From positions 24,678-88,677 of the forward strand of contig CAZBGY010000003.1 of the NCBI GenBank assembly GCA_964491605.1: a stretch of DNA of 64,000 bases. Direction: 5' to 3'. A model generated the notes under the pieces. The model saw only the letters and a program-made list of their open reading frames with translations. It ran no database searches and was not told the origin of the DNA. Made by a program: the position numbers and the translations under genes. The stretch is from an uncultured Candidatus Bathyarchaeia archaeon (GTDB lineage: Archaea > Thermoproteota > CALKCG01 > B24 > DRYS01). Shown piece after piece: positions 24,381 through 35,927 of the stretch; position 1 is the first letter of the stretch, and every line of letters begins with the position of its first letter.

Positions 24381-26315
24381 TTACCTAATGAGAAGTGTCA
24401 GAATCCTGAATGCAATCCCACCTAAAATTATTGCGAATACTATCTCGAACACTGTTATTAAAAGTGCATTTTTCCATCCAACTTCCTTAATTAATGCTGC
24501 GATAGTCGATATGCATGGTATATAGAACATCGTTACTATCGTGAATACAACCATCTGAGTAGGTGTTAAGATGCTGGAGAAATCCGTCGTTTCAAGTAGA
24601 GTTGAGAGCATTATCAACGTTAATTCCTTTCTTAGTATGCCGAAAATCAATGTTATACCTGTAGTAGCTGGTAATCCCAGCCATGTGACGATTATCGGAC
24701 TAAGCATCGTTGAAATAATCTCTGATAAACCTAAAACCTCCATCGATTTAATGATGAAGCTTCCGGCGATTATGAGAGGGAATGCTATCTTGATGAACTC
24801 GATTAGCCTAAATAATGTTTGCTTGAGAACAGTTTTTAGATGCGGAATCCTATAGGTAGGCATTTCCATAATTAAAGCCGTAGGCTCACCTGGAAGAGCT
24901 TTAAAGGCTAATCTTCCGAGTAAGAGTATAATTATGAGGTTGAAAACGTATAGTGCTAGAGCCCACTCCATCCCTAGAAATCGACCGACAAGGCCGAGGA
25001 TTATAACTGTTCGTGCAGCACAGGGGATGAGGGTTGTTACGAAGACCGCGAGAAGTCTCTCCCTCTCAGTCTCCATTATTCTGCAACCTAAGCATGCTGG
25101 AACATTACATCCATAGCCAAGCATTATCGGTATAAAGGCTTTTCCATGCAACCCCATTTTATGCATTAAGCTATCCATTAGGAATGCGATTCGACACAGA
25201 TATCCTGAATCCTCTAGCATGTATAGTATTACGTAGAATGGAGCTATATATGGAAGAACTATGGTGACGCCAGCGATAAGTCCCTCCATAATACTCCATA
25301 CTAATGAGCCCACTACTCCGACCCCGAAAATCCCACTAATAAAGGGCTCTAAACCGTAAAATATACCGTTTAGTAGTTCTGAGATATATCCTCCAAAAAT
25401 GAAGACGGTATAGAATATGGAGAGAAGTGTAAGGATCATTATTGGATAACCTAAAATCTTATGAGTTGTTAGATCGTGAAGTATCTCCTCGATCGACGGC
25501 TTTAAAGGAGGCGTAATCCTCTGAACTTCTCTAACGATACAGGTAACCTTCTCATATCTTTCGGAAGTCATCACCGATGGGCAGGGATGCCCATGGATTT
25601 TCTCGATCTCAACAGCAAGATTCCTAGCAAAAGAAACTATCTGAGGATTTATCTTCGATATTTCTTCCACAATTTCCTTATCTTCTTCGAGTAGTTTAAT
25701 CACTGTGTAGCGTATTGGATAATGATAATTTATTTGTTTAATCATTTCTGCAAGTTTAGCTATTCTCTCCTCGATCTCCTTACCATACTTTATCTTAACA
25801 CATCTTTTCTGCCCCTTTTCAGCGACTTCTATAATCTTGTCTAAAAGTTGGGTAAGACCTACACCCTTTATTGCAATCGTAGGTACGACAGGAATTCCTA
25901 AAAGCTCTTCCAGTTTTCCCACATCGATAGATATACCCTTCTTTCTCGCAATATCCATCTGATTTAACGCTATAACCATTGGAGATTCAAGTTCCATCAA
26001 TTGTAATGTGAAGAATAAGTTTCGTTCAAGAGCCGAAGCATCGATTACATTCACTACGACATCAGGTTTCTCAATCGCGATATATCTTCGTGAAATAAGC
26101 TCCTCCAAGGAATACGTCGATAATGAGTATATTCCAGGCAAATCGATTATATCGATAACATAACCCTTATAGTAGAGTGTTCCTTCAGCTTTCTCGACAG
26201 TTTTACCCGGCCAATTACCGATATGTTGATGTAATCCAGTAAGCTGATTAAATATAACGGATTTTCCAACATTCGCATTCCCAGCTAAAGCTACTGTTAT
26301 CTTTCTCTTAGACAT
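24381..26315 (-). CDS. feoB: Ferrous iron transport protein B
   Basis: N-terminal G-domain ([15 protein letters not shown]), followed by large polytopic membrane domains; 644 aa. Confidence 0.9.
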
Positions 26316-26595
26316 CCCTTTTCACCACAAAAACCTTCTCAGCTAAGCCTCGACCTAAGGCTAGCCTAGTACCTCTCACTAAAATTTCCAATGGACCATG
26401 GAATGGAGCTGCTTTCACAACTAAAACTTCTGTTCCCGGAGTAAGACCCATATCCATTAACCGCTTCTCAGCCCCCCATCTAGCCCCATATCCCCTTCCA
26501 TAGCCTCCTCTAATCGACGACACGATCCCAGCTTCACCTTCCCTTAACCAGGTTAACGGTACCTCCTGCCCGCTAGATATTTTTCGCTGTTCCAT
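26308..26595 (-). CDS. feoA: FeoA-family protein
   Basis: Small SH3-like protein; overlaps the feoB start by 8 nt. Confidence 0.65.
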   Translation of the reverse strand: MEQRKISSGQEVPLTWLREGEAGIVSSIRGGYGRGYGARWGAEKRLMDMGLTPGTEVLVVKAAPFHGPLEILVRGTRLALGRGLAEKVFVVKRDV

Positions 26596-27256
26596 ATAGC
26601 CCCCTCACCCTAATAGAGGATGCCATAGAGATGCTGAGCACATGACTTCTATCCCCCACTTTAACAAGAATCAACTCATCAGAAATTTTCCTCAGAACTT
26701 CTATCGTAGCTCCAGGCACTATCCCTGCTTTAGCAAAATACTCTAATACATTGTATTCCTCTTCAGTTAGCTTAACTATTACAGTGCTTTCACCAGGCTT
26801 TAAGTCGGTTAACGGCTGACTCTCCTCCTCAAATACTCCTCCACAGTCGGTGGGTATAGGATTTCCATGTGGACAAGTTTGAGGATGCCCCAAAGCTTTT
26901 TCGATCTTCTTTATTATATCTCGTGGGAAAACATGTTCCAATTTACAAGCAATATCATGGACTCTTTCCCACTCAACATGGAAAATATCGGTTAAAAGCC
27001 GTTCGCAAAGCCTATGTCTCCTAATCACTTGTAAGGCTATCTTTCTACCTTCCTCAGTTAATCTTACACCTCTATAAGGCTCATGGACTATATAGCCCTT
27101 CCTTTCAAGTCGCTTAAGGGTATTAGTAACCGATCCGGGAACAACTTTTAAAAGTCTAACTAAATCTTTAGTTCGTGCTCTACCTACCTTCTCCTGCAAC
27201 CTATAGATAATCTCAAGATATTCCTCCGTAGTCTCGGTAAGAGCGTGCTCCTCCAT
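26573..27256 (-). CDS. DtxR/MntR-family iron (metal)-dependent transcriptional repressor with C-terminal FeoA/SH3-like domain
   Basis: wHTH N-domain, dimerisation/metal-binding domain, C-terminal SH3-like domain; first gene of the dtxR-feoA-feoB run. Confidence 0.8.
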   Translation of the reverse strand: MEEHALTETTEEYLEIIYRLQEKVGRARTKDLVRLLKVVPGSVTNTLKRLERKGYIVHEPYRGVRLTEEGRKIALQVIRRHRLCERLLTDIFHVEWERVHDIACKLEHVFPRDIIKKIEKALGHPQTCPHGNPIPTDCGGVFEEESQPLTDLKPGESTVIVKLTEEEYNVLEYFAKAGIVPGATIEVLRKISDELILVKVGDRSHVLSISMASSIRVRGLYGTAKNI

Positions 27257-27270
27257 GTTAGACGTATATA

Positions 27271-27292
27271 AATGTACGATTAGTCGTACATT
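27271..27292. promoter_or_regulatory. Perfect 9-3-9 palindrome AATGTACGA-TTA-TCGTACATT 15 bp upstream of the dtxR start, flanked by TATA-like A/T boxes; candidate DtxR operator
   Basis: Seen directly in the sequence. Its position overlaps the presumed promoter of the minus-strand dtxR-feoAB operon. Confidence 0.4.
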
Positions 27293-27657
27293 TAAACTTT
27301 ATCTCGTCGAAAACAAAACCTCAACTATACGCTCTTTGAATAAATCTCTACGATTCTCTTGAAGCTTCCCGGTATAGATGCTAGCATGGAAAGATCTACT
27401 GAGACCTTAAAATATATTGGAATCAATATATCTGCCGGTATACTAAAGTTTACAAGGAGGCATGGAGTAATAGCTATCTGCGAGAAAATGAAAATTTACT
27501 ATTCATCGATGGTTCCTTTGACGATAACTCCATAATATATCCTCAAACAGAAAGCAGGATTCAAATAGAGGTGGGGGTCGCATCAAATCTGTGGTATTCA
27601 AAAATTACTTCTTCCATATTACCTTTACCCTCATGCCCTTTTTCCTTAACTATTATA

Positions 27658-28224
27658 CTATAGCATGTAAAGATTACCGACGCTTCCATAAACAAATGAA
27701 TCCAGCATAGCTTTATGCATCGTGAAGATTGCATGCCGACCAGTGCAATGTGATGGGACGATAATCTTCGGACTTATTTTTCTCAGCTCTTCTACGGTTT
27801 GGTTGATACGCTTCTCGAATTCCCTACCTCCTAGATGGAAGCCGCCTAAAACGGCGTAAACCGTCTCTATACCTGTAAGATGTTGTGCATAGCTGATCGT
27901 ATTTATTATACCAGCATGACTGCATCCAGATAGGATAATTAGCCCCTTACGCTTAACATCGATTACTAACGCTCTTTCATCCCATATCCATGGATCTGGC
28001 TCCCACCTACCATTAATGAAAGCTCTATGTTGTGGATAGCCCTTCTCGAAGGAGGTTTTCCGCGGAATCTCACCGGTAACCAATGCTGAGCTATCGGCTA
28101 TGAGGAGTGGTTTGCTCACCTCGATATACCCAGCTGGTTTAATCCTATCTTCAGATGGAAAGCTTGTAGCGATAGTTAAGCAGAATGCGAAGATGTTAGT
28201 TGAAAGGGAGAATATCGATATCAT
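27658..28224 (-). pseudogene. Remnant (C-terminal half only) of an MBL-fold metallo-hydrolase (COG1237-like)
   Basis: The C-terminal half carries ILSGCSHAGIIN...GGFHL...PSHCTG, but the N-terminal HxHxDH half is absent. Upstream sequence is occupied by opposite-strand fragments. Confidence 0.4.
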
Positions 28225-28606
28225 ACTAATCGATGGCCCTCCATGGATAGGCTGTCCGGCAATATCCTCTGTTGTAGATGTGGATATAGGTCTAATAGTT
28301 ACTGAGCCTACAGTATCAGGTTTTCACGATCTGAAAAGAGTACTACTCTTACTGTAACATTTCGATACCCCATCCTTAATATGTATAAACATGTATGATA
28401 TAAATTATGATAATATCGTAGAATTCTGCAGAGAAAATGATATAGAGGTTATTGGTAGAATCCCCTTTAACCCGAAGGTTATCGAGGCGATGATTAATAG
28501 GAAAACTATCATAGAGTATTCTCCAGAAAGCGATGTTGCAAAGGAGATAGAGAGAATATGGGGGGAATACTTAATTATAATCATATTATTATATTGTCTA
28601 ATTTAA
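28040..28606 (+). pseudogene. Fragment of a MinD/CooC-superfamily ATPase (COG1149-like), with internal TAA and missing N-terminus
   Basis: ORFs 28100..28357 (ILIDGPPWIGCPAISS...VTEPTVSGFHDLKR) and 28391..28606 (VIGRIPFNPKVIEAM) are in one frame, separated by a single TAA. No Walker A or ferredoxin region lies upstream. Confidence 0.5.
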
Positions 28607-28633
28607 TTATTATGTTATCTAAGAGGGTGGTGG

Positions 28634-29576
28634 ATGACTTCACCAGTATTCGGGCCAGTTCCCTCAAGGCGTTTAGGAAGAAGTCTAGGGATAAACAATA
28701 TCCCGTATAAGACGTGTACGTATTCATGCGTATACTGTCAGCTAGGAAGGACAACTCATATGCTTATTAGAAGGCGAAGATTCTATAAACCAAAGGAGAT
28801 TTTAACTGAGGTTGAAAGGAAGGTTGAAGAATTACGCTTAAAAGGTGAGCGGATAGATTATTTAACCTTCGTCCCTGGCGGTGAGCCAACTTTAGATGCT
28901 AACCTCGGAAGGGAGATTCTACTTCTAAAGCGGATAGGTATTCCGATAGCTATTATAACTAACGCTTCTCTACTCTGGAAGCATGATGTTAGAGAGAGCT
29001 TACTTGAAGTCGATCTTATTTCATTAAAGATCGATGCAGTTAGTCAAAACTTATGGAAGAAGGTGAATAGGCCGCATAAGAACTTGCAGTTAAATGACAT
29101 TTTACACGGCATAAAAGAGTTTACTAAAATATTTGATGGAACAATAATAAGTGAAACGATGCTTATTGATGGCATAAACTATGGTGAAGAACTTAAGCGG
29201 ATAGTAGACTATCTTGGGAAGCTAGATAAATTAGATGCGGCTTATATAGCGGTGCCGACAAGACCGCCAGCGGAGGGATGGGTTAAACCAGCTAGAGGGG
29301 GTCTTAAACGAAGCTTTCCAAGCATTTTCAAAGGAGCTTGGAGGTGAGAGAATAAAATTTTTAGTGAAGCATGAAGAGGATACCTTCGCTTTTACTAGGG
29401 GGATCGAGGATGAGATAGTTAGCATAGCGGCTGTGCATCCGATACGGAAAGACTATTTAACGAAGTTTTTAAACAGCATTGGAGTGGATACGTGCATCAT
29501 AGAAAAGCTTATTCAAGAAGGAAAACTAGTAAAACTTAGATACGGCGGAGACGAGTTTTATAGGAGCCGTTTCTAG
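28634..29576 (+). CDS. Radical SAM protein (COG0731-like); reading frame shifts at a G5 run (29296-29300)
   Basis: CxxxCxxC (CTYSCVYC) and GGEPTL motifs. Removing one G from the G5 run fuses ORF 28634..29347 seamlessly to 29364..29576 (…GWVKPARGVLNEAFQAFSKELGGERIKFLVKHEED…). Confidence 0.55.
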
Positions 29577-30490
29577 AATATACTGTACAATGGATGATTT
29601 TTAACTAGCGGCTTTATACCTAGGCTTCTTGCATGATACGCTATTATCGCATCGATTACCGCGCATATAGGAAAGATATGTTTCGCTTTCGCGATTGAGC
29701 CGTAAACGATGAAATTTGCCCCCATCGCCTGAGCGAGGGATAGTACTCCACCTCTACATGCTATCTTCGCATCCTTCTCTAGGCCTTTATTTTTACACCA
29801 TTTCCCCACAACACCTATCGGCGCTGTCCCAGTGGGTAAACCGAACTTTTCTTTAGCTATGTAGACACCGTAAACTGCAAAACCTATATTTGGAACATCC
29901 AAAACTGGCGTGAAGATTAAGGGTTTCTCTATCCCAGCCCTTAAAGCTCTCATAATTAACCCCTCTTTTTCTAGGGTTCCCTCAAGGATCTGGATCATTC
30001 CATCTGGATACGGATTTCTAGGGTTAAAAGCTTGAACGATAGCCGCCTTCAACCCGGTTCCTTTAATTGCTTTAATTTCCTCCTCGTTCAGCGTATAATT
30101 TATCGAGTTGTAAACCGCTTTATCCTGGAGACCAACCTCTCTCACGTAATTCGCTGCTTCAACCCTAACGGAGGCGTTAGGCCCATTTATTAAGAAGGGA
30201 CTGTTAGTAATGCTTGCTACAAATTCGATGTATTTTATTAGTGCCTTGGAAGTTTCTCCGACAACATCGAGCATGCATGGAACACCAGTTTTATTAGACA
30301 TTTCCTCTTGAATATTTATCAATCTTTCAGCTTCGATTTTATCGAAAATCCCTAAATATCTATCCTTAACTATTTTTTGCCTCTCATGAAATATACTTCC
30401 AATCAGTACAGTAGGCAATTCTCCTAGCTGCCCACTTATCCTTACTCCTCCAATATCGAAAATTTCCTGTCTCCTCCCAAACTTAAATAA
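29573..30490 (-). CDS. MtrH-like methyltransferase (tetrahydromethanopterin S-methyltransferase subunit H family homologue)
   Basis: From memory of MtrH sequences, the start of MtrH resembles the 24 codons immediately upstream of the first canonical start (TTG at 30418), which read LFKFGRRQEIFDIGGVRISGQLGE. At the homologous initiator position this gene has TTA. Confidence 0.6.
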   Translation of the reverse strand, partial: LFKFGRRQEIFDIGGVRISGQLGELPTVLIGSIFHERQKIVKDRYLGIFDKIEAERLINIQEEMSNKTGVPCMLDVVGETSKALIKYIEFVASITNSPFLINGPNASVRVEAANYVREVGLQDKAVYNSINYTLNEEEIKAIKGTGLKAAIVQAFNPRNPYPDGMIQILEGTLEKEGLIMRALRAGIEKPLIFTPVLDVPNIGFAVYGVYIAKEKFGLPTGTAPIGVVGKWCKNKGLEKDAKIACRGGVLSLAQAMGANFIVYGSIAKAKHIFPICAVIDAIIAYHARSLGIKPLVKNHPLYSIF

Positions 30491-30561
30491 AGTATTCCAC
30501 CGTACAGCTTCAACTAAACGTTGATCAAAACTACTATTTAGCAGTTTACTACTCCACTATA

Positions 30562-30921
30562 TTACTTCTCAAGAATTGCTAGATTTTCCTTAATAACATC
30601 TGCAACTTTGGTATTAGGCTTTACCGGGATAACCCTTACATTATGATAGTTAAGTAGCTCTGAAGCTTCCAGTCCTAGTTCCGCCGCTAATACTACATTC
30701 ACATTAAGATCTACCAAGGTTTTTACCACGATTGGTCCTGATCCATGCTTATATGATGATGCAGGATTATCGAGGATATATACGCTTATAATCGTACCAT
30801 CTTCGATATCGATGATGGTGAATGTCCTGGCTCTACCGAATACTTCTGAGACAACATCATCTAGACCTGCATGAGCTTTTGTTGGAACGGCTACTCTTAC
30901 CTTTCCCATATCGATCAGCAT
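30562..30921 (-). CDS. Dinitrogenase FeMo-cofactor-binding (NifX/NifB C-terminal-like) domain protein
   Basis: 119 aa; KVAVPT...FGRARTFTIIDIEDG...GSG...VNVVLAAELG pattern of the Nitro_FeMo-Co domain. Confidence 0.65.
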   Translation of the reverse strand: MLIDMGKVRVAVPTKAHAGLDDVVSEVFGRARTFTIIDIEDGTIISVYILDNPASSYKHGSGPIVVKTLVDLNVNVVLAAELGLEASELLNYHNVRVIPVKPNTKVADVIKENLAILEK

Positions 30922-30956
30922 CCAGATACCCGGGGAAAATAGAGGGGGTGAATGTT

Positions 30957-31136
30957 TTACCTAGGAGGCCCTCTACCTCTTCCACACCTCCCCCCTGGAG
31001 GTCCTTTATTTATTCTATGAATCATTATCGATGGTGCACCGCATCTTGGGCAAATTCGCGGTTTTGGTATACCTTGAGGGACCTCTATCATGTATCCGCA
31101 ACTACTACATTGGAAAAGCTTAACTGGTAAGCTCAT
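30957..31136 (-). CDS. Small zinc-ribbon protein with Gly/Arg/Pro-rich C-terminal tail
   Basis: 59 aa ORF, below the 60 aa cutoff of the ORF track: MSLPVKLFQCSSCGYMIEVPQGIPKPRICPRCGAPSIMIHRINKGPPGGRCGRGRGPPR. Two CxxC pairs; ATG at 31136, TAA at 30957-30959. Confidence 0.4.
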   Translation of the reverse strand: MSLPVKLFQCSSCGYMIEVPQGIPKPRICPRCGAPSIMIHRINKGPPGGRCGRGRGPPR

Positions 31137-31156
31137 ACTCTTATATCCCCTGAAAG

Positions 31157-31393
31157 CTATCTAAAGCCCCTCTCAAGCATATCCTTTAACTCCTTTATTC
31201 TCGTCTCAACCTCTCTTATCTCCTCTTCGATATCTGCCTTCTCTTCCTCAAGATGCTTCTTGTAATCTTCTAGCGCCTTCAATTCATCCTCTGGAGATAT
31301 AAAGGGATATCGTGGTAGATACATATATGGATATGGCGGTGGATAGATCCACCATCGCCAGAATCTCTGCCTTCCAAACCACACCATCCTCAT
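31157..31393 (-). CDS. DUF5320-like small protein (Trp/Tyr/Pro/Arg-rich N-terminus plus acidic coiled-coil C-terminus)
   Basis: The N-terminus is WFGRQRFWRWWIYPPPYPYMYLPRYPF. It is followed by SPEDELKALEDYKKHLEEEKADIEEEIREVETRIKELKDMLERG. This architecture matches DUF5320 as remembered. Confidence 0.4.
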   Translation of the reverse strand: MRMVWFGRQRFWRWWIYPPPYPYMYLPRYPFISPEDELKALEDYKKHLEEEKADIEEEIREVETRIKELKDMLERGFR

Positions 31394-31407
31394 TCACCCC
31401 TCATAGT

Positions 31408-31662
31408 TTAATACCAGTATGGCGGATAAATTATTGGGGGAAGACAATATGGGAGACCGTACCCATAGTAGTATGGGTATACCCACCACCATCTTGGAAG
31501 CCATGGAAATCTAGCACAAACCCATGGATTATATGGGTAGCCCCAAAGCCATCTACCGAAGCCGAAAAGCCATCCAGGCCTCTGCCATGGTGGCAAGTAG
31601 CTAAACGGCCCTCTCCCAGGCCAAGGCCCAATCCAACCAATATCTCTCCAACCCCAAGCCAT
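31408..31662 (-). CDS. Extremely Trp/Tyr/Pro/Gly-rich small ORF (84 aa; about 19% W, 14% Y)
   Basis: MAWGWRDIGWIGPWPGRGPFSYLPPWQRPGWLFGFGRW...WWWVYPYYYGYGLPY. The frame was chosen because it continues the composition of the next gene's N-terminus. The DNA here is CCATGG/CCA-rich, so all three reading frames stay open. Confidence 0.3.
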   Translation of the reverse strand: MAWGWRDIGWIGPWPGRGPFSYLPPWQRPGWLFGFGRWLWGYPYNPWVCARFPWLPRWWWVYPYYYGYGLPYCLPPIIYPPYWY

Positions 31663-33641
31663 TTGGGATCACCAAATATTGTGCATATGCACACAAATAT
31701 ATAAATCTTTCGTTAATATAGTTCATCTAGAGGATACCAAACATGTTGCGAAGATTGTATGATATCATAGATTTGAATATAGGAGAAGAGGTAAGTTACC
31801 AAAGTCTGTAGGGTTGACGACTTCGCAGACTTAACTAATGCTACACTCGAACTGCCGAGTCACTTAGATCCTATATTCCTAGAGATTGCGAGCTTGAAGT
31901 TTTCAGATCTGTCGGTTTTGAGAGATACTAGATTCGTCTCTAGAGTTAGCTTAACAACATTTCCATCTTCCTAGTTTATAACCTTAAGATGATGTGCTAG
32001 GTTGGATGGAACTCGGATGTATTAATCCTAGTTACCAGTAAACTTTGAAGCTTCTCTAACCGATAAAAGAGCCCCTTATCGGTTTCTTCTCCCCTATATC
32101 AGATATCACTTAAACTGCAAACTTAGATTTTGTAAAGTTCATAATTACTGGGAAAAGATCAATCATACTTTCAGTCGTTCGGTGTTATTATCATGATGAA
32201 TGTATGATTTGTACCATCACTTCTACCTTCATACTAGCTTAGATATACGCTATTCAATCCTTCATTAGATGCTATTTCGCATAGCTTTCTATCCGCTGCT
32301 AGAAATCATATAGCGTTTACATTTTTAGCTTAAGCTATTTGTAGTGCGTCAGCTTAATACACATGACATTTCTCGAGTATGATCTATGCCTATTTCAACG
32401 TTATACTCTTTACATGAAGTAGTATAAGCGAACGAAGCCTAGCCAACCTTATGGTCTCAAGTATAAATCTTCTCGTAGCGATGTAATCCTCTTCGATTAT
32501 CTTCTTAATGCTTTTCGCCCTATCTAATACGTCTAAAACCTCGCCGATATTCCATATATTAAACGATAGCTTCAACTCGCCTCCATATGCTTTCCTATAT
32601 AATTCCCTTACAAACTCTATGCCAGGGCTCCTCAATATACCTCTTTACGACGGCACTACTATCGAGATAGACTATCTGATCTACCTATCCATCATCCTTT
32701 TAACCAGCATACTCATAAGATCCTCCTTCGGTATTACAGGTTCGAAATCTAACTCATAGGTTTTTCGAGTTGGCGAGCTCATTTAAACCCTTCTCTACAT
32801 AATCCATAAGCTCCCCTATAAACGAACTAGTTTCTAAATCTTTCTCCCACAGCATAACTTTTAAACATCCTTCAAAGCTTTTTCATCCACATATATACTA
32901 CTCTTCCTTCTAGATATATAGACACCAACAGATATATACCGAAAACATTTTTAGACATTTCTACCTAAAGCATTTACTAGAAAACATCTATTGAATAGTC
33001 CAAGATATGGTGTATGCTATCTGAACATTAGATCTTAAGATTCAATTAAGTTATGAAGGGAGTTAAATATCTAAAATGCTATCGATAAAATCATCGATGA
33101 AACTATGATTAAAACATAGATTTCAATAAATCTTAATCTAAGCTCTTTACTACGTTCTAAAACTTTTTCATAGACATACAGCATTATTATGAGTAGTTTT
33201 GATATATTCTTCACTATTCCTCCTTCCGGATAGAAAAATACTACATAGTAACTGATAATTATTCGTTAACACTTAAAAATCTACTTAGGATAATGAATGT
33301 TTGAAGCTGGCTAGAGAGATCATATAATAAAAATTTAAGTTACAGCCTCCTAATCTAATCTCCGCTAAACCTTATCTAGCAGTCTATTTAGAGTTAGTAG
33401 AAGATCTAGTACACTCTAGAAGTATCCTTGACGAAAAGCTGATGATACGTAGACCTGAGGATTGACGCCACCTAAACTCTCGATACAACTATGCTGCTTC
33501 TATATAGCTTAACTCGCAAGTTATTTTAGGAAACCTAGAAAATGTTAACCTTCTTCTAACTAGTAGTTAATGGGATGGTTATAGATGTCATCTACGATAT
33601 ACGTTAAGATTAAATGGTTGAATGCGTGATCAGAGAATGTT

Positions 33642-34484
33642 GTGATAGTAGATATCCATACTCACCTAGGAGGAGTTCGATCCTGGTATAGAGGTTTGAA
33701 GGGTATAATCTTCTCTGGTTTAAACGATCTCCTAAGCTATATGTCTGATACCAGTATCGATAGAGCTGTAATCCTACCTACACCCGGTGTAGATAGGATC
33801 TTAGGAGAGTATCTATACTCGTACGATATGATCTATAGAATTAATAGGATTTATCAGCAGCTTATGGTATTCTGCTATGTGGATCCATGGAGCCCTAAAA
33901 TGGAGCATATGATAGAGGAGTATGTATCTAGGGGTGCTGTAGGTTTCGGTGAGTATAAGGTTAAACTCCCGATAGATCATCCATACTCCCTTGAGATCTA
34001 CAGGATATGCGGGGAGCTAGGTATACCTATATTACTACATATCGATGATAAGCATAACTACGGGGTAGAAACCGTATTTCTGGATGTAGCTTCAAAGTAT
34101 AATAAGACTATATTCATAATGCATGGACCTGGATGGTGGAAGCATATATCCAGTATACCTAGCTGTGAAACATATCCTAGAGGACCTATATCACCTGGAG
34201 GGTTGATCGAAAAGATATTGGAGAGCCTTGATAACGTTTACGCAGATATCTCAGCTACATCGGGATACAATGCTCTCGATAGGGATAGGGGGTATGCTAA
34301 ATTATTCCTAGAGAAGTATAGTTCTAGGATACTATTCGGTACAGATTTCCCATGCATAGATATGTATGGAGGACAATATGGCGTAGATAAGCTGCACCTA
34401 AACCTTCTAAAATCTCTCGATCTAAAAAATAAAACTATGAACAATATACTATACAAGAATGCTGAAAGAATACTAGGAATATAA
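33642..34484 (+). CDS. Amidohydrolase-2-type TIM-barrel metal-dependent hydrolase
   Basis: VDIHTHL N-terminal metal-binding motif; HID and FGTDFP motifs. Confidence 0.6.
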   Translation: MIVDIHTHLGGVRSWYRGLKGIIFSGLNDLLSYMSDTSIDRAVILPTPGVDRILGEYLYSYDMIYRINRIYQQLMVFCYVDPWSPKMEHMIEEYVSRGAVGFGEYKVKLPIDHPYSLEIYRICGELGIPILLHIDDKHNYGVETVFLDVASKYNKTIFIMHGPGWWKHISSIPSCETYPRGPISPGGLIEKILESLDNVYADISATSGYNALDRDRGYAKLFLEKYSSRILFGTDFPCIDMYGGQYGVDKLHLNLLKSLDLKNKTMNNILYKNAERILGI

Positions 34485-34955
34485 ACATTCCTCAACCCTA
34501 ACTAGACTCTGATTCCACTAGGTGTGAATTAAGTAGGGATTATCCAGGGGGGATCATATACAACGAGGTATCTATGGAGGTATGGGGAATCGAGAGGTAG
34601 ATAAACCCTCCTAGTATAACATTAGAAATTAAGCCATCAAATACGTATCCTAGAATGTTAGAATAGAAAACTCGAGTTAGATATGGAAGCTCCGTATGCA
34701 TATACCTATAGTAATATGGTGTAAACACTAAAGTATCTGCTGAATTTTAATATGTAAATCATCTTTACTGTATCTAATATCTAATCTTATCCTGTAAAAA
34801 TTTTAGATAATGAGAGGCTAAACCTCGATCCTTAATGCATCCGAGCACTTTCACCTTATCTGCTTGCTTCATAGAGTGCTCTTCGGCTTCCTAGAATTAG
34901 CAGGTCATCTTCTATAGGCAGCTACTCTAAGTTTATCTCCATGTCTTCACCTCGT

Positions 34956-35927
34956 TTACTGAGCTCTTAACCTATATGTAAGGAAGTATGCTATATCGTA
35001 TATGTTTCCGCTAACCACCTTGATAGGTATTCCATCCTGTATATCGTAGACTCTTATGGTAGCTATACCCCCATACCTACTGAACCAGTTTGAATATCTT
35101 TCAAGCTCCTTATAGGGGTTTTCAGATCCTAGAGCCGACGGGTACCCTGTATAATAGCTACTTGCAGTATCGAGTATGGTTAACCTGCCTTCTCCTACTG
35201 GGAACGCTACGGCTACATGTTCCATGCCATCTTTAAGCGTTATATCTATAAGCCAAAGGATACGCTCTTCGCCGTAGATATAGCGTTGATAAGATGCTAT
35301 TAACGCGTATAGGAGTATAGCCTGATCTTCGCAGTCTCCCTGCTTACAGCTTAAAACCTCACTTGGAGATAGAACGATCTGTCTATATGTCGTTTTCACG
35401 TATATCCCACATTCAAGGTCTGATGCTAAGGGGGGATAAGGTACCGGGGGATCATAGACGTACTCTACGTTCTTTCTAACATAATCGTATAGCTCTTTCA
35501 CGCTACACCAGTAATCGTCGGGATGAGATATCATCGATTGTGCTAAGGAGGCTAGGTTTGATATCTCGCTATCGTTCAGAACCCTACTTATAGAATCTTC
35601 GAGGAATAGGTAGGATAAAGCATACCTCCTCCAATCTTCGTAGCTACCGATTAAACGTTGATAGCTTATTCGTAGAGCTGAGTAGCTAGCCTCCAGAATC
35701 CTATACTCATTCTTCAATCCTATATGCTCATCGGATAGGCTATCATACATCGCATATAGAACTCTATACTCTTCCTCAAGCTTACTAAATGATCTTCTAA
35801 GCTCACCGTAACTACGCAGAAGAGCCGCATACTGATTGTAAGAATAGAGAGCGGAGGTGAGCCCTAAAACGGCGGATGCTAGGAGGATGGAGATTAGAAT
35901 ATTAGATTTAACACCGGCAATATTCAT
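34956..35927 (-). CDS. Membrane-anchored transglutaminase-like (papain-fold Cys protease-like) protein with coiled-coil stalk
   Basis: N-terminal TM helix, then a heptad-like repeat region (YRVLYAMYDSL...YRILEASYSALRISYQRL), then a QGDCEDQAILLYALI Cys-core motif with downstream His/Asp. Confidence 0.5.
   Translation of the reverse strand: MNIAGVKSNILISILLASAVLGLTSALYSYNQYAALLRSYGELRRSFSKLEEEYRVLYAMYDSLSDEHIGLKNEYRILEASYSALRISYQRLIGSYEDWRRYALSYLFLEDSISRVLNDSEISNLASLAQSMISHPDDYWCSVKELYDYVRKNVEYVYDPPVPYPPLASDLECGIYVKTTYRQIVLSPSEVLSCKQGDCEDQAILLYALIASYQRYIYGEERILWLIDITLKDGMEHVAVAFPVGEGRLTILDTASSYYTGYPSALGSENPYKELERYSNWFSRYGGIATIRVYDIQDGIPIKVVSGNIYDIAYFLTYRLRAQ

Follow-up and report, generated by a model that had tools for sequence, protein, structure and literature searches.

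A 64,000-nucleotide stretch of DNA from an uncultured Candidatus Bathyarchaeia archaeon (contig CAZBGY010000003.1; the whole stretch is called the window here) carries two small, highly aromatic open reading frames (ORFs) side by side on the reverse strand, which raises the question whether they are one gene broken by a frameshift or two genes, and what their products might do. Gene A (ORF84, 31408–31662, − strand) encodes 84 amino acids, comprising a GPWPGRGPFSYLPPWQRPGW...NPWVCARFPWLPRWWW core and a tail of Trp, Tyr and Pro residues without a coiled coil. Gene B (ORF78, 31157–31393, − strand) encodes 78 amino acids, in which a head of Arg, Trp, Tyr and Pro is followed by an acidic coiled-coil helix (residues 34–74). 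The comparison with related loci shows that A and B together are the split form of a DUF5320-type protein, where A holds the core and B holds the head and the coil. The pair heads a tight row of genes on the same strand, consisting of A, B, a zinc-ribbon gene and a NifX-like gene. The best explanation overall is that this split DUF5320 pair belongs to a metal-cluster operon and has an adaptor or scaffold role, and this is the explanation toward which we lean.

The translation of ORF84 (MAWGWRDIGW...WWWVYPYYYGYGLPYCLPPIIYPPYWY) contains 14 W, 12 Y, 16 P, 11 G and 4 F, with aromatic residues at 30 of the 84 positions. Measured against the long ORFs of the window, which contain 1.1% W and 9.3% aromatic residues, this W count has a binomial P of 5e-13 and the aromatic count one of 4e-11. 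The original prediction, made from the DNA letters and an ORF list, had counted about 16 W and 12 Y, of which the second number is correct and the first slightly too high. ORF78 starts with MRMVWFGRQRFWRWWIYPPPYPYMYLPRYPF and switches after a head of 31 residues to an acidic heptad-like segment, as had been described. The richness in CCATGG and CCA/TGG is real as well: three CCATGG sites lie in the 255 nt of ORF84, compared to 15 over the whole 64 kb, and CCA plus TGG reach 30 per 255 nt, the maximum of the window (mean 6.0, standard deviation 2.8). The DNA had also been called self-complementary. This holds in the trivial sense that TGG (Trp) and CCA (Pro) are reverse complements of each other; long inverted repeats were looked for in both ORFs and none was found. 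Within gene A, counted over the window and 74 orthologues, the Pro codon in front of a Trp is CCA in 55% of cases versus 36% for other Pro residues (odds ratio 2.1, Fisher P 1.5e-7, the sequences being non-independent). The CCATGG sites, on average two per gene A, stem from this preference, and a codon-pair or dinucleotide bias as its cause is a guess.

Before the pair can be interpreted, the coding frame has to be settled. Three frames had been reported open over ORF84, namely one of 130 aa on the + strand and two of 84 and 87 aa on the − strand, and the ORF list bears this out. The frames were compared over an 18-codon core block, taken from the DNA of 70 distinct orthologues. For the frame of ORF84, the ratio of non-synonymous to synonymous changes (pN/pS) is 0.024 and the entropy at codon positions 1/2/3 is 0.135/0.026/1.163; variation is concentrated at the third codon positions. 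The same ratio is 3.7 for the out-of-frame 87-aa ORF (31431–31694, − strand), which is open in 34/74 orthologues, and 1.8 for the antisense 130-aa ORF (31312–31704, + strand), which is fully open in 13/74; neither of them is a gene on these numbers, and Pfam and NCBIfam scans of both ORFs gave no family match. Both ORFs are by-products of composition. For the 87-aa frame this follows from its openness under recoding, since random synonymous recodings of protein A leave the shifted frame stop-free over 70 of the 84 codons on average. The antisense frame is fully open in just 0.8% of such recodings. This would fit a scenario in which the antisense ORF, or else a structured non-coding RNA, is the real product and the aromatic ORFs are accidental. 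Nevertheless, most orthologues do not keep the antisense frame open, its pN/pS is not that of a gene, an Rfam scan of 30400–33700 revealed no family at E ≤ 1 inside either ORF, and shuffled sequences fold as well as the mRNA does (z = −1.31). The codon-position pattern of the substitutions refutes this scenario, and we assign it practically no probability.

For gene B the picture is similar. The entropy of its coil block is 0.46/0.29/1.19 at codon positions 1/2/3, and the 93%-identical relative L001 contains an in-frame insertion within the Tyr/Pro region. The direct comparison of the window with L001 yields 12 differences, which are too few for telling the frames apart. The check proposed originally, on amino-acid conservation among orthologues, singles out the 84-aa and 78-aa frames of the − strand. 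Taken together, the pN/pS among orthologues, the codon-position entropies, the in-frame insertion in B and the lack of an Rfam match argue that both ORFs are protein-coding in exactly these frames. ORF84 and ORF78 are shown to be separately translated genes under purifying selection. That they are real genes and related to DUF5320 is close to certain in our view.

What kind of protein is A? A search with the 84-aa query retrieved 283 related proteins, nearly all of 80–145 aa and encoded in archaeal metagenomes and metagenome-assembled genomes (MAGs), with Bathyarchaeia, Hadarchaeota, Nezhaarchaeales, Jordarchaeum, Terraquivivens and Hydrothermarchaeota among the sources. The family is a small one: a phmmer search of the whole library gave 46 representatives (50% identity) at E ≤ 1e-3 among 1.84 billion proteins; one of these, P0256 (1225 aa), is a spurious repeat match. 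The family has the core PGRGPFSYLPPWQRPGW with one conserved Cys, followed by RFPWLPRWWW and the aromatic tail. Here, P24, P25, W26, R28 and P29 are invariant, and PGRGPF, C49 and RFPWLPRWW are nearly so. The tail, which stands where a coiled coil would be, lacks acidic and lysine residues. In the 64 coil-less A proteins the medians are 15% W, 13% Y, 35% aromatic residues, 16% P, 17.5% G and 8% R, the median of both Asp+Glu and Lys is 0, and the final residue is W or Y in 52/64. To our knowledge, the A proteins (~15% Trp, 35% aromatic) are among the most aromatic conserved proteins known. Structure prediction by AlphaFold2 (AF2) on a 120-sequence alignment gave no confident fold (predicted local distance difference test score, pLDDT, 49; predicted template modelling score 0.20). 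A profile search of the PDB with the A family returned generic coiled-coil matches, which concern the coil columns of the fused members only, while the core remained unmatched.

The link to a catalogued family comes from protein B and from longer homologues of A. Pfam PF17253 (DUF5320) groups uncharacterised small proteins from bacteria and archaea, whose N-terminus is rich in Gly and Arg and whose C-terminus forms a coiled coil. Protein B aligns to positions 43–98 of the 99 positions of this profile (E 3.7e-4, 22.0 bits; the gathering threshold of Pfam is 27 bits), and 11 of 19 B orthologues have DUF5320 as top family, with a best E of 3.7e-5 that is still under the cut-off. A profile built from these 19 orthologues retrieves 142 proteins, many of which are labelled PF17253 or 'DUF5320 domain-containing protein'. 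For A, many homologues carry the PF17253 label and many are longer proteins passing the DUF5320 threshold; A matches, for example, P0042 (E 1.8e-14), which scores 34.6 bits on PF17253, and P0036 (E 1e-15), which scores 32.4 bits. Both A and B are therefore homologous to proteins that pass the Pfam threshold for DUF5320. In a profile-profile comparison with hhalign, B and A match with 99.5% probability (E 5e-23), and the N-terminal head of B is placed against the A N-terminus, with low confidence in the aligned columns. AF2 predicts for protein B one long helix (34–74, blockwise pLDDT 83–94) behind a low-confidence head. Furthermore, the pair has the same DUF134 and Nitro_FeMo-Co neighbourhood as DUF5320 genes elsewhere, which is an association among loci and not a formal criterion of the family.

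The window pair also differs from a canonical DUF5320 protein. The Gly/Arg-rich N-terminus and the coil are not on one polypeptide here, but on two: A has no coil and no Pfam match, and B lacks the conserved core. In fused homologues the Pfam match begins around PPWQRPGW (profile positions 27–99), so that the invariant core PGRGPFSYLPPWQRP is not covered by the portion of the profile matching these archaeal forms and Pfam does not model it. The canonical N-terminus of DUF5320 (profile positions 1–57) is a sequence different from the A core. Both occur in one 142-aa protein of a bacterial MAG (L074:1435–1860, + strand), where the canonical N-terminus (1–57, 58.8 bits) is followed by an A-type core and an aromatic tail, and a separate B gene comes next. 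The long W/Y/P tails belong to the split forms only.

With the frames and the family in place, the question of one broken gene or two genes can be addressed. The spacer between ORF84 and ORF78 measures 14 nt (31394–31407) and the frames differ (269 mod 3 = 2), both as originally reported. These features had led to the suggestion of a single ancestral gene split by a frameshift. Three observations seem to favour a recent event of this kind, in which the pair is one DUF5320 gene and at least one half a pseudogene fragment: the ORFs are adjacent in different frames, fused homologues exist, and the neighbouring DUF134 gene is truly decayed. To weigh this, 88 loci were examined, 80 from named genomes and 8 from metagenome look-ups; the automatic A/B classifier undercounts B partners and fused forms, as a B gene or a coil is plainly present in some loci that it scored 'solo', so the counts of split and fused loci are lower bounds. 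The order of an A gene and then a coil-type B gene recurs in Bathyarchaeia, Hadarchaeota, Nitrososphaeria, Terraquivivens and one bacterial MAG, at no fewer than 25 distinct loci. Across these split loci, the spacing of A and B varies between −13 and +41 nt, the relative phase 0/1/2 occurs in 11/6/8 loci, and Shine-Dalgarno (SD)-like sites precede B in 23/25 and A in 21/25. Both halves are under purifying selection, the aromatic tail of A is complete up to its stop codon, with a final W or Y as in 52/64 of its relatives, B has a head of its own, and reading through or shifting frame at the junction reveals no A-like or B-like continuation. A recent frameshift lesion is refuted for practical purposes by the conserved split together with the pN/pS of 0.024, and it is hardly credible. 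Programmed frameshifting between A and B was considered as well and is rejected, since phase and gap vary among orthologues.

The gene-B side of the junction has the features of an independent start. The window spacer reads TAA-ACTATGAGGGGTGA-ATG and contains the SD-like sequence GAGGGGTGA (31394–31402, − strand), which would serve gene B. It lies 6 nt from the second ATG, at 31387, which is the optimal distance, and the relatives begin with M-x-W-P-R-R at that ATG. Because of this spacing and the alignment of the orthologues, the true start of gene B is probably the ATG at 31387, giving 76 aa.

The idea of a single ancestral architecture is nevertheless right at the level of the family. As the proposed search for fusions of the pair revealed, at least 10 fused proteins of other archaea contain the core and the same EDELxALEDYKKELEEEKASIEQEI coil in a single polypeptide. 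The median aromatic count after PPWQRP is 26–27 in the split forms versus 11 in the fused forms. On the comparative data, the present pair is an old and maintained two-gene arrangement. Its origin is explained better by a tandem duplication followed by complementary loss, or by a fission long ago, than by a frameshift lesion. Since the N-termini of A and B are similar, at low column confidence, the duplication is at least as likely as a simple fission.

The partner of A is not the same everywhere. At least 13 loci from Desulfurococcales, Thermofilales and other Thermoproteota show A followed by a different aromatic-plus-helix partner of 60–75 aa. These partner genes (L063, L065, L067–L073, L077, L079, L081, L083, L085–L087) lie 3–16 nt downstream of A. 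Their products start with an aromatic MYPYYPY... sequence. A DP motif follows, and also a very hydrophobic segment, aromatic and helix-like, that terminates in W-R/K-K. The products have no Pfam match and could be membrane-associated.

The gene order behind the pair gives the first indication of a function. The third gene, 20 nt after B, encodes a 59-aa zinc-ribbon (CxxC...CxxC) protein with an RG-rich tail (30957–31136, − strand), which has zinc-ribbon or rubredoxin-like matches in Pfam and NCBIfam, all under the cut-off. The fourth, 35 nt further downstream, encodes a NifX-like protein (30562–30921, − strand) matching Nitro_FeMo-Co (PF02579, E 3.6e-16, 59.7 bits) and also the C-terminal domain of NCBIfam MrpORP. 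Terminator-like sites on the − strand were looked for between these first four genes, and none was found except a weak one inside ORF84. Of the 88 loci with gene A, 52 have a NifX-like gene, which almost always lies on the same strand and downstream of A, and 28 have the zinc-ribbon gene conserved downstream of A. Pfam families of 148 neighbouring proteins include Nitro_FeMo-Co (32), DUF134 (20), metallo-beta-lactamase (12), ParA/NUBPL-type iron-transfer NTPase (8), CbiA/MinD (8) and Fer4 (4Fe-4S; 6). Furthermore, in a Nitrososphaeria MAG gene B is fused to Nitro_FeMo-Co in one ORF of 232 aa (L059:5193–5888, + strand; DUF5320 32.7 bits, PF02579 63.3 bits). This fusion represents a Rosetta-stone link of the coiled-coil half to NifX-like proteins. 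The earlier suggestion of a metal-cluster binding module is thereby supported indirectly, by the conservation of a NifX-like neighbour and by the one DUF5320-NifX fusion. The zinc-ribbon protein may be connected to A by sequence as well. In 13 of 22 relatives (the loci with such tails include L009, L011, L015, L018, L028 and L074) its tail has GPPW near the C-terminus after an RG-rich stretch. Seven of the 13 are PPW[QR]R-like, as in GGGPPWQRP, which resembles the invariant PPWQRP of protein A; the copy in the window stops at GPPR. This common PPWQRP-like element may be a docking motif.

Further downstream, a methyltransferase gene of the MtrH/MtgA family (29573–30418, − strand) follows 143 nt after the NifX-like gene; in close relatives the MtrH-family gene call is shorter (167 aa). 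An iron-uptake and control cluster (24381–27256, − strand) encoding FeoB (644 aa), FeoA (95 aa) and a fusion of a DtxR-type repressor with FeoA (227 aa) is found about 4 kb downstream of the operon, at the same relative position as in L001–L003.

A radical S-adenosylmethionine (SAM) gene for 237 aa (28634–29347, + strand), whose best NCBIfam match is the viperin family, far under the cut-off, lies about 2 kb away. In cyclophane-forming and darobactin-type systems of ribosomally synthesized and post-translationally modified peptides (RiPPs), radical SAM enzymes cross-link aromatic residues. Small and extremely aromatic ORFs near such a gene bring to mind that A, and perhaps B, could be RiPP precursors. 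The radical SAM gene, though, is encoded on the opposite strand and is missing at the same position in the 93%-identical L001–L003, where an AsnC-type regulator and metallo-beta-lactamase genes are present further along in its place. Radical SAM is also not among the 25 most frequent Pfam families of the 148 neighbouring proteins. A is most conserved in its N-terminal core, across several archaeal phyla, no pattern of leader and core or of protease and exporter is seen, and B ends in a long coiled coil. Since a conserved modifying enzyme is lacking, RiPP precursors are disfavoured, and we regard them as very unlikely.

How the pair is controlled can be read in part from the region upstream of A. 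On the gene strand it reads CGAAAG-A-TTTATATA-TTTG-TGTGCATATGCACA-ATATTT-GGTGA-TCCCAA-ATG. Here, the TATA box TTTATATA (31698–31705, − strand) lies 43 nt upstream of the ATG of A, with CGAAAG before it resembling a transcription factor B recognition element (BRE). It is found at a similar distance in many orthologous loci and is presumably the archaeal promoter. An SD-like GGTGA (31669–31673, − strand) precedes this ATG by 6 nt. The stretch separating the TATA box from the expected start of transcription contains a perfect 14-bp palindrome, TGTGCATATGCACA (31680–31693), which is a candidate operator. It is the single site in the window, even if two mismatches are allowed. In 637 kb of related loci, the strict pattern TGTGC[AT]4GCACA has 37 sites, 35 of them within 130 nt upstream of A, where shuffled sequences lead to an expectation of 0. 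A looser pattern is present in 55/74 upstream regions; it extends from Bathyarchaeia to Thermococci and frequently occurs twice. Altogether, the palindrome (TGTGC-N4-GCACA, the spacer being A/T) is found at A promoters of Bathyarchaeia, Hadarchaeota, Thermococci, Desulfurococcales, Thermofilales, Nitrososphaeria and Methanodesulfokora; in Desulfurococcaceae it sits just upstream of the TATA box. No description of such an operator was found in the literature searched.

Which protein would bind it? A DUF134 gene is present in 56/88 loci, mostly divergent and ~90–350 nt upstream of A. Since the palindrome sits in the intergenic region common to A and the divergent DUF134 gene, DUF134, a putative helix-turn-helix (HTH) regulator, is the obvious candidate, and we infer that the palindrome is bound by a DUF134 protein. 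In the window, a search by tblastn with DUF134 proteins of related loci located a decayed, divergent remnant at 31763–31971 (+ strand). Its fragments 31766–31831 and 31855–31899 lie in different frames (E 1e-4), in-frame stops are present and the HTH part is missing. The operator palindrome is kept in the window despite this dead copy next to it. Overlapping the remnant is a match to the C/D-box snoRNA Z119 of Rfam (31778–31875, + strand; 22.5 bits versus a gathering score of 70, E 0.83), most likely by chance. The assignment of the pair to an operon and a regulon is, in our judgement, highly likely.

This close association with DUF134 leads to the main rival of an adaptor or scaffold role, namely that A and B are regulatory partners of DUF134, acting as sensor, co-repressor or anti-repressor. 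The first gene behind the operator would then feed back on the regulator, perhaps with the help of a bound metal cluster or of the Cys conserved in A. Nearly all operator sites belong to the A promoter, DUF134 is the most frequent neighbour and usually divergent from A, A is always promoter-proximal, and operator and A/B persist in the window although its DUF134 copy has decayed. Yet the promoter-proximal position is uninformative on function, evidence of a contact between A and DUF134 is absent, and the L059 fusion joins the DUF5320 coil to a NifX-like domain and not to DUF134. Such a regulatory partnership is thus an improbable alternative, albeit the one to be taken most seriously.

For the adaptor or scaffold role, the following model is proposed. 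All four genes of the row, from A to the NifX-like gene, would be co-transcribed as one operon, with the palindrome as a repressor-type operator, probably bound by a DUF134 protein encoded elsewhere in the genome. B would oligomerise through its helix, and the largely disordered aromatic and Arg-containing regions of A and B would associate and so stand in for the covalent connection that the fused proteins have. This assembly could act as a small adaptor or scaffold, serving the zinc-ribbon protein and the NifX-like carrier of metal clusters, as an archaeal counterpart of the anaerobe-specific ORP-type complexes. In this specific form the mechanism is tentative, and clearly less assured than the explanation as a whole.

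Several observations weigh against this proposal. For the interaction of A with B, the link to the NifX-like protein and the pairing of DUF134 with the operator, the grounds are gene order, composition and a single fusion. A and B both stay under the gathering score of Pfam, and A has no match in Pfam (at E ≤ 1) or NCBIfam. Most of the hhalign score between B and A stems from the coil that fused members contribute to the alignment of the A family. In Thermococci, a 60-aa A gene has no B-like ORF detected downstream, and B is therefore not universally required. No intact DUF134 gene is present anywhere in the 64-kb window, where the local copy is dead, and no Mrp/MinD-type ATPase is encoded among the window genes 24381–35927. 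Finally, the literature searched contains no functional study of or experiment on any DUF5320 protein. The mention nearest to one is a motif scan, in which a DUF5320 protein of Hadesarchaea appears as a possible G-quadruplex binder (PMC7565180).

The system most similar to the window operon is the ORP complex of Desulfovibrio vulgaris, which contains the NifX-like Orp8, the Mrp/NBP35-type Orp9 and Orp3/4 with ferredoxin motifs (PMC6345978). Both gene sets are confined to anaerobes and are arranged around a small Nitro_FeMo-Co protein, a component which is Orp8 in one case and the product of 30562–30921 (PF02579, E 3.6e-16) in the other. Furthermore, the NifX-like protein of the window matches the C-terminal domain of MrpORP, and the Mrp/NBP35-type and MinD/ferredoxin-type ATPase families of ORP adjoin A in related loci as well. 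Orp5 (DVU2105) may be a DUF5320 protein too. That the archaeal components form a physical complex, as those of ORP do, is hinted at indirectly by the L059 fusion of DUF5320 and Nitro_FeMo-Co. The differences concern regulation and content. The ORP genes are under the control of sigma-54 and OrpR, in contrast to the archaeal TATA promoter and palindromic operator found here, with DUF134 in the relatives. The operon of the window is without the Mrp/MinD-type ATPase, which is present in a minority of the related loci.

The extreme composition of A invites two further comparisons. Tritrpticin (VRRFPWWWPFLRR) and indolicidin are antimicrobial peptides rich in Trp, Pro and Arg. The A motif ARFPWLPRWWW combines the same residues and would have a similar membrane-interface-seeking chemistry; this is a comparison of composition only. 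In contrast to these peptides, A has 84 aa, no signal peptide or processing site and a place in a cytoplasmic metal-cluster operon, and no homology is shown. Eukaryotic condensate proteins such as FUS, LAF-1 and DDX4 contain low-complexity RGG regions of the 'sticker-spacer' type built from Arg, aromatic residues and Gly. The composition of the A family (35% aromatic, 17.5% Gly, 16% Pro, 8% Arg) and its lack of a confident AF2 fold are reminiscent of these regions. Again compared by sequence composition, A differs in being tiny and prokaryotic, in having an invariant linear motif and a conserved Cys, and in that Trp (median 15%) is commoner than Tyr (13%).

A variant of the assembly idea can be formulated on this basis. 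A and B might form a condensate-like or membrane-interface module for the handling of Mo/W/Fe-S clusters in anaerobic archaea. A would be the disordered Trp/Tyr/Arg 'sticker' without acidic or lysine residues, B the coiled-coil partner with a matching aromatic/proline head, and both would self-associate via cation-pi and pi-pi contacts. Such a scaffold could concentrate the NifX-like and the zinc-ribbon/rubredoxin-like proteins, for which the RG-rich PPW(Q/R)RP element would serve as docking motif. This variant is speculative, and we consider it unlikely, a shade more so than a regulatory partnership with DUF134.

DUF5320 is catalogued, yet uncharacterised, and the locus shows no mechanism that would overturn current views. 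As far as the literature was searched, four things are new: the invariant core that is not modelled, the split architecture whose aromatic tails are conserved in composition, the operator and the DUF5320-NifX fusion. DUF5320, DUF134 and the small NifX-like proteins form a widespread, anaerobe-confined and uncharacterised gene set, of which the Desulfovibrio ORP complex is the sole studied relative and is still poorly understood.

Because Pfam and NCBIfam in their current state miss the core PGRGPFSYLPPWQRPGW, every occurrence of gene A carries the annotation 'hypothetical'. The fused and split forms represent a natural dissection, in which the core is separated from the coiled coil and long aromatic tails accompany the split state. 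The extreme composition of the A proteins makes them a useful case for disordered, aromatic-rich proteins of archaea. For this family, the operator TGTGC-N4-GCACA provides a testable DNA target for DUF134, and the DUF5320-NifX fusion a pointer to the protein partner.

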